Virus record (IMG/VR): IMGVR_UViG_3300050821_018287
Coordinates: 28,258 to 92,257 of that record
From: a virus
Strand: one strand, 5' to 3'
Length of the DNA: 64,000 nucleotides
Of the stretch, positions 2,975-64,000 are shown one piece after another (position 1 is the first letter of the stretch; each line of letters starts with the position of its first letter). The notes under the pieces are model-generated. The model ran no database searches. It saw nothing but the letters and a program-made list of their open reading frames with translations, and was not told the origin of the DNA. The position numbers and the translations under genes were made by a program.

Positions 2975-4360
2975 TTAGCCGTGCTCGATGGCGACGAAGC
3001 GCTTGTAGCGCGCGGCGTCGCCGGTGGTGGCGTCCGTCCGGATCGGCCAGTCACCCATGAACTTCCAGCTCGCGGACACCAAGTCCTGGAGCCGGTTCAG
3101 CGGCGAGCGGAGGAGGAGCTGGATGCGCTCGGTGTTCACCTCGATGCCGTTGTTGCTGATGCGCGGCTCGCCCACCTTCCCGGTGACACCGGCCTCGGTC
3201 AAGAGCAGCGCGAGGTCGATGTAGTACTCCATGATGCCGCCCTGGCCGGTGAACAGCGCCCGGTGGACCGGCACGGAGCTGGCGTTGAGCAGCTCTCCCG
3301 GGAACGGATCCGTGAGGATGTAGTTGCCGGACTTGTCGCCCACGGTCTCCTTCAGCGGCGACTCCGTGTTGCGGAAGAAGGCGACACCGAGGATGTAGCC
3401 GATGCCGAACTGCTTGTACATGAAGTAGTCCGGCAAGGACGTGTGGAGGCGCTGCCACTCGGGATCCGCGAAGATCTCCGACTCGGACGTCGGGTCCAGG
3501 TGGCAGTGGAAAGCGCCGTCGGTGTGCTCCGGGACGTTCTCCTGGCGCATGCGGGAGACCGCGGAGCGGACCGCCTGCATCGTGAGCAGCGAGCCCGCGT
3601 TGATCGAGTCGATCGAGTTGCCTCCGCCGACGCGCACTAGCACCGAGGCGTCGTTGGAGATGACCGGATCGCGGGAGGAGAACGTCTGCGCCACGTCGAG
3701 CGTCAGCGTTCCCGGCCCCACCTCATCCCCGGGGTTGGTCGAGGAGAAGCCGATCACGTTCACCGAGAGCGGCACGCCCGCGTGGATGATGTTGATGGGG
3801 AGGGGGTTGTTGCCGGTGACGACGCTGAACTGCACCGGGCTTCCCAGCGCCAGATCCGGCCGGCGGGAGCGGGTGAAGCCGTTCAGCCGGACCACCGGCA
3901 GCGACGTGGTGGCCGCGCCGGAGGCCGAAGCCACCGTGTTGCCCGACAGCGCCGCGTTGAACATCCTGTTGCGGACGATCCGGTTCAACGTCTGTCCCGC
4001 GGCGAGCCCGAGCTGCTGAGCGTTGCGCAGGAAGAGGTTGGCGATGGCGACGATGCTCGTCGGCATGTGGGTGTCGATCGTCTGCGCGTACTGCTGGACG
4101 ATCGCGTTCCACTGCTCCTCGGTGTACGTCTGAGGAATCGGGTCCTGGCCGGGGACGATGGGCTGTCCGTTCGGCGGGATGAGCCCGGTGCCGGTGAAGA
4201 ACATCGAATCACCGACGTTCCCCGGGAAGATGACGGGGGCTGCCTCGCCTCGGTACAACAAGCGGGGGAAGAGAGCATCATGGAACGCACGCTCCAGGAT
4301 TCCATCCTGCACCAGGGCGCGGATGTTGGGATCCTGGAGAATGACGGTAAAGTCGGCCAT
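2975..4360 (-). CDS. major capsid protein (HK97 fold)
   Basis: 461 aa, directly after the scaffold gene, with GAGGAG RBS. LTMQAVRSAVSRMRQENVP...FHCHLDP...IFADPEW...IGYILGVAF...PLNRLQ motifs resemble N4-gp56-like capsid proteins. Confidence 0.85.
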   Translation of the reverse strand: MADFTVILQDPNIRALVQDGILERAFHDALFPRLLYRGEAAPVIFPGNVGDSMFFTGTGLIPPNGQPIVPGQDPIPQTYTEEQWNAIVQQYAQTIDTHMPTSIVAIANLFLRNAQQLGLAAGQTLNRIVRNRMFNAALSGNTVASASGAATTSLPVVRLNGFTRSRRPDLALGSPVQFSVVTGNNPLPINIIHAGVPLSVNVIGFSSTNPGDEVGPGTLTLDVAQTFSSRDPVISNDASVLVRVGGGNSIDSINAGSLLTMQAVRSAVSRMRQENVPEHTDGAFHCHLDPTSESEIFADPEWQRLHTSLPDYFMYKQFGIGYILGVAFFRNTESPLKETVGDKSGNYILTDPFPGELLNASSVPVHRALFTGQGGIMEYYIDLALLLTEAGVTGKVGEPRISNNGIEVNTERIQLLLRSPLNRLQDLVSASWKFMGDWPIRTDATTGDAARYKRFVAIEHG

Positions 4361-4466: not shown

Positions 4467-5354
4467 CTAGGTCGGAACGGTCATCCCGCGCCTGCGGATT
4501 TCCGCTGCGAACTCAGGTCCCGACAGCTTCTTCACGTCAAGGCCGTTGCCCTTCCCGCCTCCGGCAATTTCCCCGGGCTTCGGAGGAGTCTGCTCTCCCC
4601 CCTTCGTCCCGGTTGTGGCGGGCTTCGTCACCTTTGGCGCTTCACCGAACAGGTACGGGCGATCCGTCTTGAGCTGTTCGAGCCACTTCGACTCGTCGAA
4701 CCCCTTCAGATCCTCCTCCGACTTCCCCTTCAACTCCGTGCGCAGGAGGAAGACGGCCACCGGAACATCCTTGACACCGGCCTTGTAGCAGGCGTCGCGG
4801 ATGGCCATTTCGGTCTCCGTACCTTCCTTCTCCCGCTCGGCCCGCTTCCGGGCTTCGGCCTCTTGTCGGGCCTTTCGAGCGAGTCCCTGACGCTCCTTGT
4901 CCCACTCCGCGCGGTCCCGCTGGTAGCGGGCCCAGGCCCGCCGGTCGTTCCGGCCTCCTGGGGGTGGCTTCGGCTCGCCGTTGGAGGTGGTGGTCTCCCG
5001 GGTCTCCCGGGTCTCCCGCCGCTCTCCGCCCTTCGGGGACGGAGCGGACAGCTTGGCCAGGACATCATCGAAGGACTGGAAGCCGGCCTTCTTGATCTTC
5101 TCCTGGAACTCCGCGAGCGCTTCCTTGCGTCCGCGGTCCTTGCTGTCGTCCAACCGCTTCTTCAGCGCCTTCGATGGGATGACGACGTTTTTCCCGTCGC
5201 CCACCACCGTATCGCCACCGGCTCCGGCAGCCTTCGCCGCCGCTGCCTTGTCTGCCGCTTCCTTCGCCGCCGCTTCGGCCGCTGCTGCTGCCGCTGCATC
5301 GGGTGGGGGAGGTGTACCTGCTCCTGGTCCTGCTCCGTCTTTCGCGTCCGGCAT
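4467..5354 (-). CDS. capsid scaffolding protein
   Basis: 295 aa charged coiled coil immediately upstream of the capsid gene. LEQLKTDRPYLF followed by a Gly/Pro/Lys tail is typical of phage scaffolds. Confidence 0.8.
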   Translation of the reverse strand: MPDAKDGAGPGAGTPPPPDAAAAAAAEAAAKEAADKAAAAKAAGAGGDTVVGDGKNVVIPSKALKKRLDDSKDRGRKEALAEFQEKIKKAGFQSFDDVLAKLSAPSPKGGERRETRETRETTTSNGEPKPPPGGRNDRRAWARYQRDRAEWDKERQGLARKARQEAEARKRAEREKEGTETEMAIRDACYKAGVKDVPVAVFLLRTELKGKSEEDLKGFDESKWLEQLKTDRPYLFGEAPKVTKPATTGTKGGEQTPPKPGEIAGGGKGNGLDVKKLSGPEFAAEIRRRGMTVPT

Positions 5355-6506: not shown

Positions 6507-6704
6507 TTACCGCCCGCTGGGCGTCATCGGCCCGACGGTGAAGGGGGAGGGATCCGTGCCCTTCGGCATCTGGCTCTCCTGGAGGAGATCCTTCTGCGGC
6601 ACCTTCGCCACGACATCCTCGTACTTCCCGTGCTTCTTGTCGTAGGTCTCCGCCGCGTTGGGCGTCTCGCCTTGCAGGAGATCTTGGTTGGGGGTGTCGC
6701 TCAT
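6507..6704 (-). CDS. small disordered protein, YDxKHGKY family
   Basis: 65 aa; contains QDLLQGETPNAAETYDKKHGKY and ends PSPFTVGPMTPSGR. Confidence 0.7.
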   Translation of the reverse strand: MSDTPNQDLLQGETPNAAETYDKKHGKYEDVVAKVPQKDLLQESQMPKGTDPSPFTVGPMTPSGR

Positions 6705-6729: not shown

Positions 6730-6894
6730 CTACTTCCCGCCCTTCATGCTCAACGGCTGGTGGGTCTCGGCGCTCTGCTTGACGGCCTTCGCCTTCGCGG
6801 TCATCACCTTCGAGCCGTCGTACTTCCCGTGCTTCGAGTCGTACGCCTCGTGAGCCTTCGGGAGATCTCCGCTGACCAGATCCTCATTGCACAT
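6730..6894 (-). CDS. small disordered protein, paralogue of 6507..6704
   Basis: Below the track cut-off; read by hand: MCNEDLVSGDLPKAHEAYDSKHGKYDGSKVMTAKAKAVKQSAETHQPLSMKGGK. Shares YDxKHGKY with its neighbour. Confidence 0.7.
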   Translation of the reverse strand: MCNEDLVSGDLPKAHEAYDSKHGKYDGSKVMTAKAKAVKQSAETHQPLSMKGGK

Positions 6895-51784: not shown

Positions 51785-52075
51785 TCAACGCTCCCCGATC
51801 AACGCCGCCCGCGCCCAGTGCGCCCGCACGCGCTGTTCCACTTCGCGCTTCGCCGTGGCGAGGCTCCGGAAAACGTTGTTGTGCAGTTCCGGCTCCCCCA
51901 ACACGAGCCCCAATGCGCGCCACCTACCGCCCTTCACCGGATCGAGCCAGGCGAGCGACACCCATTCCCCGGCGGAGTGGGGGGTGTCGCCGCGCTTCTG
52001 GAACACCCACGAGGTCAGCGCATCGTCGGCGTCCTTGGGACCCTTGTCCTGCGTCCAGCGCGTCTCAGGGCTCAT
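51785..52075 (-). CDS. small protein related to the array family
   Basis: Contains FRSLATAKREVEQRVRAHWARAAL. Confidence 0.65.
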   Translation of the reverse strand: MSPETRWTQDKGPKDADDALTSWVFQKRGDTPHSAGEWVSLAWLDPVKGGRWRALGLVLGEPELHNNVFRSLATAKREVEQRVRAHWARAALIGER

Positions 52076-52320
52076 GGGATGTCGCTCTCTTCTGAGGCAT
52101 CCCAATTCAGCGCCCAGCGGTCCTCATCCTGGGCCAGCCGCTCCGCCGTGTTTCGAGCGATTGCCGCGAGGCACGCCTTGCACGTTACCTTGGAAACGTC
52201 CGCTGTCTTCAAGGCCCGCTTGCGGTCCTCGGACGTAATCGCGTCGAGCCAGTTGCGCGCGATCAACCCGCACATCATCGTGATGCCGGGTGGGTAGAGA
52301 GGGAAGTGGACCTTCTTCAT
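52072..52320 (-). CDS. small Zn-binding protein
   Basis: VH...CG...VTCKACLAAIARNTAERL. Confidence 0.6.
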   Translation of the reverse strand: MKKVHFPLYPPGITMMCGLIARNWLDAITSEDRKRALKTADVSKVTCKACLAAIARNTAERLAQDEDRWALNWDASEESDIP

Positions 52321-52631
52321 TCGCAAAGCCTCCGGCGGGTGTCCTCTTCTGCCGCCCACACCAACTCTTGCATCTCGTCCCACCAGCGGCGACGCCGGTT
52401 GTTCTCCACCCACTCCTCGAAACGGACGACGAGAAGCGAGAAGGACGGGCGCTTGCGCGTGAAACGGTACAGGCAGTCGTTGCAGAACACCCGGTACACC
52501 TCACTGGGGGGCTGAAAGACGACCCAGCGCCCGTTGAAAGCGAAGATGTGCTCCGCGGCGCACCCCCAACAAAGCGACTCCGACGTAAGGTTGACCATCC
52601 CGGGGCCGGGATCGCTGAGAGTAAGGCTCAT
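52317..52631 (-). CDS. small Zn-finger protein
   Basis: CWGC...FCNDC. Confidence 0.6.
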   Translation of the reverse strand: MSLTLSDPGPGMVNLTSESLCWGCAAEHIFAFNGRWVVFQPPSEVYRVFCNDCLYRFTRKRPSFSLLVVRFEEWVENNRRRRWWDEMQELVWAAEEDTRRRLCE

Positions 52632-52846: not shown

Positions 52847-53106
52847 CCGCCGAGCATCTTTCTCGCAGCCCAGGCCTTGGAGACCTCCTCACACCAGGCC
52901 ATGCCCTCCGCGAGGGTCTCAAAGCTCGCCTCGCGGATCTCATCCTCGAAGAAGCACGCGTGAAAGAGCGCGGATTGCCCGAGGTTCGGGTACTGGAGCA
53001 CCCAAGCGATGCGGTGGTCTCCGTAGGTGAAGTACCAGCGGTGATTATCGTCTCCGCCACGAACATCGTTGTCCCACCAGAGGCCTTCCGGCTCCGACAG
53101 CGGCAT
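52843..53106 (-). CDS. small protein related to the array family
   Basis: Contains FETLAEGMAWCEEVSKAWAARKMLGG. Confidence 0.6.
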   Translation of the reverse strand: MPLSEPEGLWWDNDVRGGDDNHRWYFTYGDHRIAWVLQYPNLGQSALFHACFFEDEIREASFETLAEGMAWCEEVSKAWAARKMLGG

Positions 53107-54575
53107 CACCCCTCCAGCGTGAAGCCCAGAGGCATCTGCTGTAGGTCCAGCACCTCGTGCCCCTCGGAGACGTACGCCTTGATGCGGGCGCGTCCGTGCT
53201 TCTCCAGCCACGGGTTGCCTTCGTCCCGGATGTCGTAGACCTCGAAGGAGGTTTTCCCCTCACTCACCCGCATCCCGCGGCCGATCCGCTGGAGGGCGGC
53301 GATGATGGACTTCCCTCCGCTCCCCACCACCACCGAGCGGAGCTGGGGGATGTCCACGCCCTCCTGAAAGATGACCGAGGAGATCAGCACCTCCGTGTGC
53401 CCGGAGACGAGCCGGGAGATGGCGCGCTGGCGCTCCTTCGTCGTGTCCGAGCCCCAGACGAATTCGGCTTTCAATCCCACCTCGCGCAGCTTCCGGTGGA
53501 GGAGCTTCCCGTGGTCAATCTCCTTCACGAAGACGAGGCAGGGCTTGGCCGCGCGCTTCGCCAAGTCCGCCAGCGTCCCGTTCCGCAGGGGGCTCTCCAC
53601 GACGCACTCCCGGTAGACCTTCTGCCAATCGCGCTCCGTCCACCAGGAGGCTTCCTGCTGCACGCGCACGAGGCGGATCCGCGGCTTCGACAGGACACCT
53701 TCCTTGATGAGCAGCTCGGGGCGGATCGAATAGATGACCGGCCCGAGCGCCCCGACGGCGAGGATGGAGCGCTGGTCGGTGCGGGCGAGCGGGGTGCCGG
53801 AGAGGCCGACCCGGTAGTAAGCCGGGCAGCTCATCGCCACCTTGTAGAAGCTGCCCGCCGGCAGCGTGTGGCACTCGTCCACGATGAGCCCTTCGGTTGC
53901 GCGGAGGAGATCTCCCGCCGGAGTCGGCCACACCGCCTCCGTGACGTGGGTCAGCCCGTCCCCGCGCTCAACGCGGACAATCCGGGCCTTCTTGCGCTTC
54001 CGTTCGCGCTCCAGCGCCGCGTAGAGCGTCTGGAACGTCGCGACGGTGAAGCGCTGAACGTCCCACTGCCCGTCGCCGATCCGCCCCGCCTTCTCGTTCA
54101 ACCGCTTCTCGAAGCGCTCTGCCGCCTGCTCCAGAAGGTTTCCCCGGTGGACGAGGAAAAGCCACCGGCACCAGAGCATGCTCGCGAGGCCCGTGGCGAT
54201 CTCCGTCTTCCCCGCGCCAGTGGGCGCCTTGACGATGCCGCGCTTCCGCGCGACGACCGCCAACACCGCGTCGAGCTGGTACTCCCGGAGCCAGTCCAGG
54301 TGGGAGTCCTTCGACGCCTTCGGGTTGCAGACGGGCTCCCGGTTGTCGCCCACCTCGATCGTGACTCCGGCCTCCTTCGCCGCCTTTTGGATGAGGGGGA
54401 GGAAGCCGGTGGGGAAGGTCTGCTCCACGAGGTGGAACAGGTGGATCTTCTCCCCGGCGCGCCCGCGGTGGTAGGCGGTGGCGTCGTCGAAGGCGAGGTA
54501 GTGCCGGAGCCAGGCCACCTCTTCGTCCGTCGCGCGGGTGACTTTCGTGTTGAGGTTACGAACGTCGAGCCACAT
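53106..54575 (-). CDS. superfamily 2 DNA helicase (UvsW-like)
   Basis: LREYQ, PTGAGKT, DECH, SGTP, EGVDIP, QRIGRGMR. Confidence 0.9.
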   Translation of the reverse strand: MWLDVRNLNTKVTRATDEEVAWLRHYLAFDDATAYHRGRAGEKIHLFHLVEQTFPTGFLPLIQKAAKEAGVTIEVGDNREPVCNPKASKDSHLDWLREYQLDAVLAVVARKRGIVKAPTGAGKTEIATGLASMLWCRWLFLVHRGNLLEQAAERFEKRLNEKAGRIGDGQWDVQRFTVATFQTLYAALERERKRKKARIVRVERGDGLTHVTEAVWPTPAGDLLRATEGLIVDECHTLPAGSFYKVAMSCPAYYRVGLSGTPLARTDQRSILAVGALGPVIYSIRPELLIKEGVLSKPRIRLVRVQQEASWWTERDWQKVYRECVVESPLRNGTLADLAKRAAKPCLVFVKEIDHGKLLHRKLREVGLKAEFVWGSDTTKERQRAISRLVSGHTEVLISSVIFQEGVDIPQLRSVVVGSGGKSIIAALQRIGRGMRVSEGKTSFEVYDIRDEGNPWLEKHGRARIKAYVSEGHEVLDLQQMPLGFTLEG

Positions 54576-54580
54576 TTGGG

Positions 54581-54817
54581 CTACCCCTTTTTGGGCTTGT
54601 ACGTCAGCGTCGGGAAGACCGAGGTGTGGAAGGCTTTCTCCAGGATGCCCTCCTGGACGACCTTCCGGATCGCCGGGTCGCTGAGGATGACGTTGAAATC
54701 GGGGCCGGAGCGCGGTTCCGCCTTGAGCGCTTCGAGTGCCTTCTGCGCCTGCTTCGCGAGGCGGCGGCGCCGAAGGAGCCGAGCGCGTTTCTGCGTCTGT
54801 CGGCGGGAGAGGCTCAC
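54581..54817 (-). CDS. small Arg-rich protein carrying a copy of the major capsid N-terminus
   Basis: GTGA-coupled start at 54817. DFNVILSDPAIRKVVQEGILEKAFHTSVFPTLTY versus capsid DFTVILQDPNIRALVQDGILERAFHDALFPRLLY: 22/34 identical, no gaps. Confidence 0.8.
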   Translation of the reverse strand: MSLSRRQTQKRARLLRRRRLAKQAQKALEALKAEPRSGPDFNVILSDPAIRKVVQEGILEKAFHTSVFPTLTYKPKKG

Positions 54818-55114
54818 TTTTCCGGTCTCAAAGTGAGGTCCATCGTGATGAAGTCGGCGGGAGCTGGCGTCCGAACGCGGGCGATCACATTCAACACGTC
54901 TCCCATGATCGACTCGATGGAGATCTTCGTTCCCGGAGGCAGCCGCTTCTCCAGCGACTTCGTGAGTGGCTCCAACGTCGAGCCCAAGACCTGATTCACG
55001 TAAACGCACCGTCGCGCCCGGATCCCCGAGCGCGAGGAGGGATTGTTCCCTCTGCTGACGCTTGCGCGCGTCGGGTGAGCGTCCTCGCCGCTTCTGGAGG
55101 CGCCGCCGGCTCAC
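54814..55114 (-). CDS. small protein, Arg-rich N-terminus and sheath-like C-terminus; apparent +1 frameshift near 55003
   Basis: GTG 55114 to TGA 54814 is 301 nt. Removing one T from CGTTTAC joins SRRRLQKRR...GATVR to YVNQVLG...VIARVRTPAPADFITMDLT. Confidence 0.45.
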
Positions 55115-55359
55115 AGCACCTCCGCCCACATATCCGCCCAGAAAGCCTTGCAGAGGCGCTCACAATCGCCGCAGAGGACGCGAAGCCGGTTCATCTTCTC
55201 GTCCACGTATGCCGTCTCCACCGGCACCTCGAAGCCGGGTTTTCCACACCGCTCCTCGAAACCTTCACACGGACCCGCGGGCAGTCGTCCCCCGAGCGCG
55301 ACGAGCGCCGTGTCAGCCATCGCGCGGCGGCGCCACGCTTTGGAGCGCTTCGACCTCAC
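55111..55359 (-). CDS. small Zn-binding protein with an Arg-rich leader
   Basis: RSKRSKAWRRRAMADTALVALGG...CEG...C...LCGDC. Confidence 0.6.
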   Translation of the reverse strand: MRSKRSKAWRRRAMADTALVALGGRLPAGPCEGFEERCGKPGFEVPVETAYVDEKMNRLRVLCGDCERLCKAFWADMWAEVL

Positions 55360-55613
55360 TTCTTCCTCGGGACCAGATCGACTTTGATGTGCAGGCCCAC
55401 CGCGTCGAGAACCTCCGCCACGGTGTAGATGGTGGGGTTCTTGCTTTGGAGAAGCTGGGCAACACCTTGTCGGGTGATCTGGAGCCGGCGCGCCAGCTCC
55501 GCCCGCGTCAAGCCCTGCGCCAACATCGCCTCCTTCACCATTGCGAAAACCTGCTCGGCGAGCCGCACCGCTTCCTTCTTCGCTTCCTCCTTCAGCTCCG
55601 CGCGCGCCCTCAA
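55356..55613 (-). CDS. XRE-family HTH regulator
   Basis: GLTRAELARRLQITRQGVAQLL...NPTIYTVAEVLDAVG. Confidence 0.8.
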   Translation of the reverse strand: MRARAELKEEAKKEAVRLAEQVFAMVKEAMLAQGLTRAELARRLQITRQGVAQLLQSKNPTIYTVAEVLDAVGLHIKVDLVPRKK

Positions 55614-55843
55614 GCGTCCAACCCCAGAAGCTTCACCGCCTCCGGATTCTGCTCCCGGAAGTAGCGGATGAGGGAGGCCCACTCCACGTACCACCGGCCG
55701 CCGACACGCACTCCGTGGACCTTCTTCTCGTCGATCCAGCTCCGGATCGTCGTGGTGGTGAGGCCCGTCTTCTCCGCGACTTGGGGCGTGGTGACGTAGC
55801 CCTTTTTCGCGAGGATGGCCTCTTGGTTAGGCTTCTCGTCCAT
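55610..55843 (-). CDS. excisionase/MerR-like HTH protein
   Basis: VTTPQVAEKTGLTTTTIRSWI....GVRVGGRWYV. Confidence 0.8.
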   Translation of the reverse strand: MDEKPNQEAILAKKGYVTTPQVAEKTGLTTTTIRSWIDEKKVHGVRVGGRWYVEWASLIRYFREQNPEAVKLLGLDA

Positions 55844-55864: not shown

Positions 55865-56071
55865 TCATAGTGATTCCTCAAGCCGCCGCACCGTGTCCCG
55901 CGCGAGCGCCTCCAAACACCCGTTGCACGTCACCAGCGCGCGATCCTCGACGCACTGGATGCCCCGCTTCTGGGTGCGTTCATCCGCCTGGAAGCGGTTG
56001 AAGCACCACGTTATCTTCTCCCAGAGCGTCTGGGAGCGGAGGAGGTGGACGGGGAATTTGGCCTTGCGCAT
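55865..56071 (-). CDS. small Zn-binding protein, paralogue of 52072..52320
   Basis: VH...WC...VTCNGCLEALARDTVRRL. Confidence 0.6.
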   Translation of the reverse strand: MRKAKFPVHLLRSQTLWEKITWCFNRFQADERTQKRGIQCVEDRALVTCNGCLEALARDTVRRLEESL

Positions 56072-63301: not shown

Positions 63302-64000
63302 CTACAACAGGTCCAGCACCTTCTGTGCGGTCGCGATCGTCAGCTCCCGGTTTGCGTCCGTCGTCTGCGTCGGGTTTCTCATCACAATGATGCACTCGCG
63401 GAGGGCGGAGTGGACCTGACCGATCGTTGCGTTGGTCCGGCGGAAGGTCTCGGAGCGCCCTTCAACGTGGATGCGCCCCGCGTCGCCGTGCGCCTCCTCG
63501 AAGCCGGGGGTGTGGATGGTCGTCAGTGCGTGCTTCAGAGCCGCGACGCGGAGCGCGTCGGTGGGCTGGGAGAGGGCCATGCTGCACGCGATGAGCTGCG
63601 CGCGCACCCCGCTCAACGTCTTCGTCATGTTAGTCACCTGCTCCCGGAGGGTGTCGATCTCGTTCATCATCCGGTCGCGCTCACCCGCCGCGGCTTCCGC
63701 CTCCTTCGAAGGAGCGTTGTAGCCGGGGACCTTCAGCTCAACCGCGCCCGGGGGCAGACCGCCTTCGACCTTCTGGAGGGTGAGCTGGATCCGTCCGTCG
63801 TACTTCTTCGCTTCGATCTCCGAGTCCACCTCATCGCGCCAGCTAGGGTGAGCCCGCTCGGTGTCGCCCAGGACCGCGTGACCGATCGGATGGGTGATCT
63901 TCCCATCAGCGACGACGCCCCAACGGTGGAGCGTCGCGAAGAGGTGCGCGTTGATGTCACTCCCGTGGACCGCGCCGATCCCGAGGGCTTCTTGCTGCCG
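63302..64000 (-). CDS. hypothetical protein, 5' end outside the window
   Basis: The frame of ORF 63302..63829 stays open to 64000 (RQQEALGIGAVHG...RDEVDSEIE). Confidence 0.55.
   Translation of the reverse strand, partial: RQQEALGIGAVHGSDINAHLFATLHRWGVVADGKITHPIGHAVLGDTERAHPSWRDEVDSEIEAKKYDGRIQLTLQKVEGGLPPGAVELKVPGYNAPSKEAEAAAGERDRMMNEIDTLREQVTNMTKTLSGVRAQLIACSMALSQPTDALRVAALKHALTTIHTPGFEEAHGDAGRIHVEGRSETFRRTNATIGQVHSALRECIIVMRNPTQTTDANRELTIATAQKVLDLL

Follow-up and report, generated by a model that had tools for sequence, protein, structure and literature searches.

Why would a phage keep a partial second copy of its major capsid protein, joined to foreign sequence and placed among genes for DNA replication? 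The question is raised by a 78-residue protein (P0001) encoded in the stretch of DNA analysed here, hereafter the window, which is 64,000 nucleotides long and corresponds to bases 28258 to 92257 of a 92,257-bp IMG/VR virus record rated complete by CheckV. An earlier note on this DNA had described P0001 as an Arg-rich helix followed by a selected copy of the capsid N terminus; we followed up that description and the possible roles of the copied segment.

Genomic context of the P0001 gene

The window has a GC content of 66%, and its coding-like open reading frames (ORFs) lie nearly all on the minus strand. In the order of transcription, a first block contains genes for a sigma factor, a ParB-like protein, several HTH proteins, an SF2 helicase, DnaB, a primase and a DNA polymerase, and is followed by terminase, portal, the scaffolding protein (4467-5354) and the major capsid protein (2975-4360). 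The P0001 gene thus lies, as the earlier note had it, about 50 kb from the capsid gene and among replication genes: the helicase gene adjoins it, and DnaB, primase, DNA polymerase, ParB and sigma factor belong to the same block. The features at the locus are the following.

53106..54575, minus strand: SF2 helicase gene (Pfam ResIII, 1.9e-21, and Helicase_C; phrog_16, 3e-74)
54581..54817, minus strand: P0001 gene, a 78-aa ORF encoding a basic helix and a C-terminal capsid N-arm-like module (GTG start; TAG stop at 54581-54583)
54584..54601, minus strand: family-specific tail Y-K-P-K-K-G (Y73, K74 and P75 invariant in the family alignment)
54596..54703, minus strand: module homologous to capsid residues 2-37, P0001 residues 39-74 (BLASTP, alignment, AF2)
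54719..54811, minus strand: long Arg/Lys-rich helix, P0001 residues 3-33 (AF2 model, pLDDT about 80-85)
54814..54999, minus strand: 61-aa ORF upstream of P0001 (third-position GC 0.79)
55356-55541: XRE HTH_3 gene (8.6e-08)
55610-55843: MerR/excisionase-like HTH gene
55865..56071, minus strand: 68-aa gene with a V-H...C...V-T-C-x-x-C module (weak match, E 0.004; motif list)

The third-position GC of the P0001 ORF is 0.87, compared to 0.93 for the capsid gene. Its GTG start overlaps the TGA stop of the upstream 61-aa ORF (GTGA), which suggests translational coupling, and is not preceded by a clear Shine-Dalgarno sequence. The choice of this start is supported by the homologue P0004 (described below), which starts at the equivalent position with a similar basic sequence, M-S-R-K-R-T-R-R-Q-R, where P0001 reads (V/M)-S-L-S-R-R-Q-T-Q-K-R. 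At the other end, the helicase gene begins 5 nucleotides after the P0001 stop (ATG at 54575), and the last P0001 codons, AAAAAGGGG (CCC AAA AAG GGG TAG, 54584-54598), lie at the presumed ribosome-binding (Shine-Dalgarno) site of the helicase, so that the basic tail may be doubly constrained; the Y-K-P tail is nonetheless also present in the P0001 homologues. Judged from gene position alone, P0001 would be expressed early. A second contig, 91,754 bp long and from other data, codes for a protein identical to P0001.

Neither P0001 nor its homologues matched a Pfam, PHROG, PADLOC or known anti-defence family; the upstream 61-aa ORF was likewise without a family match in Pfam, PHROG and PADLOC. The ESM Atlas gave no usable feature match for P0001, and its structural neighbours were generic helical proteins with TM-scores of 0.43 to 0.54. 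The AF2 model of P0001, obtained with a six-row family alignment (mean pLDDT 71), consists of a helix at residues 3-33, which corresponds to the Arg-rich helix of the earlier note and is a single one, a short helix at 41-44, a helix at 48-67 and an extended tail. In the module, the helix 48-67 is followed by F-P-x-L-x-Y-K.

Homology of the C-terminal module to the capsid N-arm

Two features of the head region are needed for the comparison.

2975..4360, minus strand: major capsid protein P0002, 461 aa (phrog_1357 "major head protein," 3.4e-13)
4250..4354, minus strand: capsid residues 3-37, the N-terminal arm (N-arm), source of the copied module (BLASTP)

In tblastn searches the capsid protein matched proteins annotated as capsid in Streptomyces phage Kromp and in phages of Ralstonia and Komagataeibacter, and a profile search of the PDB sequences returned no solved relative. 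AF2, given a 12-row alignment, yielded a model of the capsid protein that was of poor quality (pLDDT 45). Residues 40-74 of P0001 aligned by BLASTP with capsid residues 3-37 without gaps, with 22 of 35 positions identical and 28 of 35 positive (E 4e-14), which bears out the ungapped match with 22 identical residues originally noticed. P0001 is thus homologous to the N-terminal arm of an HK97-fold capsid of the phrog_1357 clade. It has a counterpart to capsid residues 3-37 only, with none of the rest of the full-length HK97 fold (A and P domains, E-loop and spine helix). Consistent with this, when the capsid was compared with the whole 92,257-bp record in six frames by tblastn, only its residues 3-37 recurred (E 1e-9), and nothing capsid-like was found beside the P0001 module. 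Against the N-arms of related capsids, P0001 showed 41 to 54% identity within the module by tblastn, falling to 32% when the match ran upstream of it.

The two coding sequences have diverged widely. The count of 12 different codons among the 22 identical residues given in the earlier note was exact: 10 codons are the same, a number not higher than the 13.6 +/- 2.1 expected from independent draws on the codon usage of the phage. Nucleotide identity is 64/108, and blastn-short found no significant similarity between the P0001 and capsid genes at the DNA level. Between module and capsid, the proportion of synonymous differences is 0.76, that is, saturated, and that of non-synonymous differences is 0.28. 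Since the synonymous sites are saturated and no similarity is left in the DNA, the likeness must be old and maintained at the protein level.

We also considered whether P0001 might be a junction fragment made of the 3' end of the scaffold gene and the 5' end of the capsid gene, and rejected it: the upstream tblastn extensions cross stop codons and are not significant. A comparison of P0001 with the scaffold region in its own capsid locus and in those of relatives gave nothing beyond chance-level basic runs. An all-against-all BLASTP of the GC3-filtered ORFs found no other pieces of virion proteins in small ORFs at E < 1e-3, a partial test in that the GC3 filter also removed the long upstream extension of the P0001 ORF.

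A family of small proteins sharing the C-terminal module

Four more small proteins, P0004 (65 aa), P0005 (106 aa), P0006 (128 aa) and P0008 (126 aa), with E-values of 4.8e-08 to 7.7e-04, emerged from a full HMMER scan of 1.84 billion cluster representatives, together with one capsid fragment (P0007). The scan also returned P0003 (4745 aa, 23 matched stretches, E 6.5e-33), which we discarded as an unrelated Ser/Gly/Ala-rich, silk-like repeat protein whose high score is inflated by its many weak repeat matches. The four homologues are encoded on short ENA or Logan contigs of 863 to 7558 bp. Such proteins are very rare: the 1.84 billion representatives contain five clusters of them. Word-indexed protein searches (near lengths, longer lengths and the family alignment) yielded no further members, and a strict DNA pattern for A-[FY]-H..F-P.L.Y-K-P had no match in viral, metagenome and genome collections; a looser pattern gave 1 + 24 matches, all of them chance occurrences in unrelated low-GC DNA.

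The homologues are 36 to 57% identical and keep the module intact. In all five members the module is placed at the C terminus, with the core A-[FY]-H-x-x-[VLM]-F-P-x-L, and the protein ends 1 to 5 residues past Y-K-P, a site at which capsids read [FY]-R-[GSA], mostly F-R-G-E-A. The residues invariant in the family alignment (A1) are A62, H64, F68, P69, L71, Y73, K74 and P75, plus R11, D47 and G57. Different from the module, the N-terminal parts vary: P0001 and P0004 carry a basic helix, P0005 and P0008 a V-H...C...V-T-C-x-x-C arrangement, and P0006 neither of these. P0001, P0004 and P0005 also seem to have in common a short A-[AK]-Q-x-x-x-A-[LV] helix that immediately precedes the module.

The saturation of synonymous sites, the 28% non-synonymous change and the intact module in four homologues indicate that purifying selection acts on the small proteins themselves, in line with the earlier suggestion of a selected copy and not a recent DNA duplication. 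Neutral decay of the homologues and a remnant of a second capsid gene had been named among the outcomes that would speak against such a copy. The homologues are diverged yet intact and share a new tail, which argues against both, and a remnant is further at odds with the recurrence of residues 3-37 only and with the end point shared by the five members. That the module would be a leftover of illegitimate recombination that happens to stay open, as the rarity of the family and the lack of the gene in relatives might suggest, is highly improbable in the face of saturated synonymous sites in a conserved protein, four intact and diverged homologues with the same new C-terminal tail, a coding-like third-position GC and a start that overlaps the upstream stop.

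A V-H[LF]...C...(20-26 aa)...[VA]-T-C-x-x-C-L-x-x-[LI]-A module closes at least five ORFs of this phage and is also the N-terminal part of P0005 and P0008. These ORFs include 55865-56071 and 52075-52500 of the window, both on the minus strand, and record bases about 1786-2710 on the plus strand, before the window. The profile matches among the genome's own ORFs are weak (E 7e-4 to 1.4e-2), and the module matched no Pfam or PHROG family. It may be a His/Cys3 zinc-binding unit, and its occurrence in P0005 and P0008 is an indirect hint that these proteins belong to phages carrying a related capsid type.

Origin of the module within the capsid lineage

The capsid N-arm ranks 46th in conservation among 427 windows of 35 residues in 16 capsids, and its motif is recognisable, in more diverged form, in capsids that are 27 to 31% identical overall (Streptomyces phage Kromp and Komagataeibacter phiKX1). 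The copy starts at capsid residue 2, reading G-P-D-F compared to M-P-D-F in relatives. Among 23 aligned capsid N-arms, all five small proteins are nearest to the arm of this phage (49 to 68% identity), and the combination D10, G20 and Y36 is common to the five small proteins and this arm and is not found in the other capsids. Since the modules nest inside a close capsid clade, the transfer went from capsid to small protein. The earlier claim that the phage copied its "own" capsid holds in that the P0001 module is closest to its own arm, but the same is true of all five members, so that the likeness marks a source capsid sub-lineage and not necessarily phage-by-phage tracking. Two readings fit these sequences: the family may have arisen in an otherwise unsampled capsid sub-lineage, or arm and module may co-evolve on a common partner, which the sharing of D10, G20 and Y36 with the host capsid sub-lineage would fit.

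The best-kept part of the small family corresponds to the core that varies little, if at all, among capsids, Q-x-G/N-I/L-L-E-R-A-F-H-D-x-L-F-P-x-L. Over the first eight arm residues (D-F-x-x-I-L) conservation in the small family is loose, and thus only part of the arm surface appears to be constrained. Two positions that vary among capsids, D47 and G57, are the same in every small protein, a hint of a constraint that is either specific to the partner or of another kind. Position by position, conservation in the small family and in the capsids was not significantly correlated (Spearman 0.21, p 0.23).

Distribution of the gene in related phages

We gathered sixteen capsid loci from IMG/VR records (56 to 64% identity) and two MAG contigs. 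No second N-arm copy was present in any of the eight whole related records searched, which comprise six phage records and the two MAGs. The helicase region could be read for comparison in one relative, of 89 kb (G001), where the excisionase-like HTH gene directly precedes the helicase (L003:3756-4010) and the P0001 gene is absent. In the phage studied here, about 1 kb is inserted between the HTH gene and the helicase (54581-55843), containing the XRE HTH_3 gene and three small ORFs of 82, 61 and 78 aa. With eight records lacking a second copy and the one readable helicase region lacking the gene, the P0001 gene is probably accessory, and the eight records also imply that assembly of such phages does not need P0001. 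At two junctions within the insertion, start and stop codons overlap as GTGA, and an Arg-rich N terminus follows each time.

Capsids 54 to 64% identical to that of this phage are encoded on contigs in an Acidimicrobiaceae MAG and an Armatimonadetes MAG (L049, CAYVOK010000047.1; L050, PMZA01000066.1; L053); the latter MAG also contains another capsid of this type, which is more divergent and has the arm end L-L-Y-R. As the two bins differ in host phylum, they are weak evidence about the host.

The scaffolding protein as a candidate partner

4467..5354, minus strand: scaffolding protein, 295 aa, candidate partner of the N-arm (phrog_194 head scaffolding protein, 2e-07)

We propose that P0001 could be a two-part adaptor, composed of the basic helix (residues 3-33) and the module (residues 39-78). 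The module descends from the HK97-type capsid N-arm of the phage's lineage, truncated at some 36 residues and extended by a new Y-K-P-K-K tail, and is portable, being found at the C terminus of unrelated small N-terminal parts in the four homologues. It might do the job that the capsid N-arm does in the procapsid, namely, that of a docking site for the C-terminal basic helix of the scaffold. P0001 would then be tethered to the scaffold or to the procapsid interior, or would compete with capsid subunits for the scaffold, with the consequence that its N-terminal part would be loaded into procapsids or that assembly would be tuned or blocked. The interpretation of the module as a portable N-arm tag binding the C-terminal helix of the scaffold is the one we tentatively favour, and it may well prove wrong.

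We favour it because the N-arm docks the scaffold in those solved procapsids that have a separate scaffold and because the scaffold of this phage has a basic C-terminal helix of its own. In the 80alpha procapsid, the helix-and-hook at the C terminus of the scaffold touches mainly the capsid N-arm helix, and the SaPI1 protein CpmB competes there (PMC5644958). In P22, the coat N-arm residues D14, E15 and E18 are the partners of R293 and K296 in the scaffold hook (PMC12005531). In the module studied here the acidic residues D40, D47, E56 and E60 are kept, and in the scaffold alignment (A4) the C-terminal element F-D-A-R-K...Q-E-F-Q-x-R-L-x-x-L-G-L, a short basic helix, is conserved. Furthermore, a module that is always C-terminal, joined to N-terminal parts that differ, has the layout of a docking tag. 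On the other side, the gene lies among replication and regulatory genes and not among head genes, and P0001 may be made when scaffold is absent, which counts against a scaffold-binding tag. A complex prediction of P0001 (A1) with the C-terminal 126 residues of the scaffold (A4) gave a score of 0.00 (mark 0.32), with an uncertain fold of the partner, and carries no weight in either direction. More specifically, the copy of the own-capsid N-arm could act as a portable address tag, by which the scaffold would carry small proteins into procapsids or hold them until assembly, something that we consider rather doubtful; if it were true, it would mean cargo loading, or an assembly-coupled release of small nucleic-acid-binding regulators.

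The scaffolds of the clade have in common a conserved middle domain (G-V-x-D-V-D-Y-A...G-K-S-E-E-E-L...R-P-Y-L-F-G), followed by a Pro/Thr-rich linker and a short C-terminal helix. In the scaffolds of Kromp and phiKX1, whose last 50 residues were inspected, there is only a basic C-terminal tail. PHROGs identified no prohead protease in the head module.

Alternative roles of the module

An unlikely alternative is that the module was recruited as a small helical unit for a job unrelated to the capsid, for instance, as a dimerisation or partner-binding hairpin of small regulators that would bind nucleic acid through their N-terminal parts, such as the basic helix or the His/Cys module. P0001 does lie in a run of small regulators (the XRE HTH_3 and MerR/excisionase-like HTH genes) just before the helicase, and the family has invariants of its own that are absent from capsids (D47, G57 and the Y-K-P tail), as well as a conservation profile uncorrelated with that of the capsids. 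However, such a recruitment would not be expected to leave the capsid-invariant core as the best-kept part of the small family, nor all five members nearest to one capsid sub-lineage, if the capsid context were irrelevant.

Two further roles appear improbable, and none of the results singles out one of the three functions suggested in the earlier note, a decoy, a poison for competing phages or a hold on premature assembly. Defence proteins triggered by major capsid proteins exist, and the module might imitate a capsid epitope, so as to soak up or blunt a host capsid sensor before the capsid accumulates, a decoy that the earlier note had placed among its possibilities. The faithful, selected copying of a capsid surface and the accessory, probably early location would suit such a function, and absence in relatives is typical of counter-defence genes. 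However, an early capsid-like trigger should fire the sensor sooner instead of blocking it, and the N-arm faces the interior in HK97-type shells; moreover, neither PADLOC nor the known anti-defence families gave a match, and the variable N-terminal parts would be left unexplained. No better placed is the proposal that the module pairs with capsid subunits, in the groove filled by the N-arm of a neighbour or arm to arm, and thereby caps or derails the shell growth of related superinfecting phages or delays assembly in its own phage. In its favour, the copied segment makes inter-subunit and scaffold contacts in HK97-type capsids, and neighbouring genes for ParB-like and excisionase-like proteins are compatible with a temperate or plasmid-prophage lifestyle, which often comes with exclusion genes. 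But the capsid that the module resembles most is that of the phage itself, which would thus be its own victim, and the hundreds of subunits in each head would call for high expression, yet the gene has a GTG start with no clear Shine-Dalgarno sequence.

Comparison with known systems

Returning to the reading of P0001 as a scaffold-binding tag, its nearest parallel is the SaPI1 protein CpmB acting on the 80alpha scaffold (PMC5644958), also a small accessory protein that copies one side of the scaffold-capsid interface. CpmB copies the helix-and-hook at the C terminus of the scaffold, by which it gains entry to the assembly pathway of the helper, and belongs to a satellite acting on that helper, whereas P0001 copies the capsid N-arm side, belongs to the phage itself and is encoded in the replication module. 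Thus, P0001 is not a scaffold-mimicking size-redirection protein of the CpmB type, whose C terminus is homologous to the capsid-binding helix of the scaffold; its likeness is to the capsid.

A second parallel is offered by the capsid-targeting sequence (CTS) of T4 internal proteins and by encapsulin cargo peptides, in which a short conserved peptide is borne by unrelated small proteins, an arrangement suited to delivery into HK97-fold shells. Such capsid-targeting or cargo-loading tags have about 10 to 15 residues and share no homology with the shell protein. Different from them, the P0001 module has about 36 residues and is homologous to the N-arm of the shell protein. The encapsulin tag is C-terminal, as in P0001. 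The T4-type CTS, in contrast, is an N-terminal stretch of about 10 residues that is removed by the prohead protease and whose protein is found in virions, compared to the C-terminal module of about 36 residues in P0001. Vertex or minor capsid paralogues, such as gp24 alongside gp23 in T4, likewise come from a second gene that a phage has obtained from its major capsid gene, but these are full-length proteins with the HK97 fold that are incorporated into the shell, while P0001 corresponds to residues 3-37 only and is fused to foreign sequence.

As for the N-terminal part, lambda N is likewise a small early phage protein with an Arg-rich N-terminal helix, but P0001 has no Pfam or PHROGs match; we take the Arg-rich helix of P0001 to resemble this antiterminator, with a loosely similar A-K-Q-A-Q stretch, and treat the resemblance as a lead only.

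Our literature search found no report of a phage-encoded free capsid N-arm. Satellites that exploit helper phages already provide examples of interface mimicry, the scaffold side being the one imitated; to our knowledge, a selected free copy of the capsid side, carried by small proteins with interchangeable N-terminal parts, has not been described. If the module binds scaffold or procapsids, it would provide a natural tag, simple in genetic terms, by which proteins could be brought into HK97-type shells, or else a new coupling of gene regulation or phage competition to head assembly; if it binds a host sensor, it would represent a new class of counter-defence. Either way, it offers a short, defined peptide with which the partner of the N-arm may be mapped in a capsid family without a solved structure.

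Other features of the record

Bases 1-98 of the record are identical to window positions 63482-63579, inside the ORF 63302-63829, of which the start of the record holds a partial copy. This second copy of the repeat lies about 420 bases before the end of the record; not being at the very end, it does not represent a simple terminal repeat or wrap-around. In the head module, two adjoining small ORFs on the minus strand, 6507-6704 and 6730-6894 (65 and 54 aa), are paralogues with 58% identity over 24 aa (E 1.7e-07).
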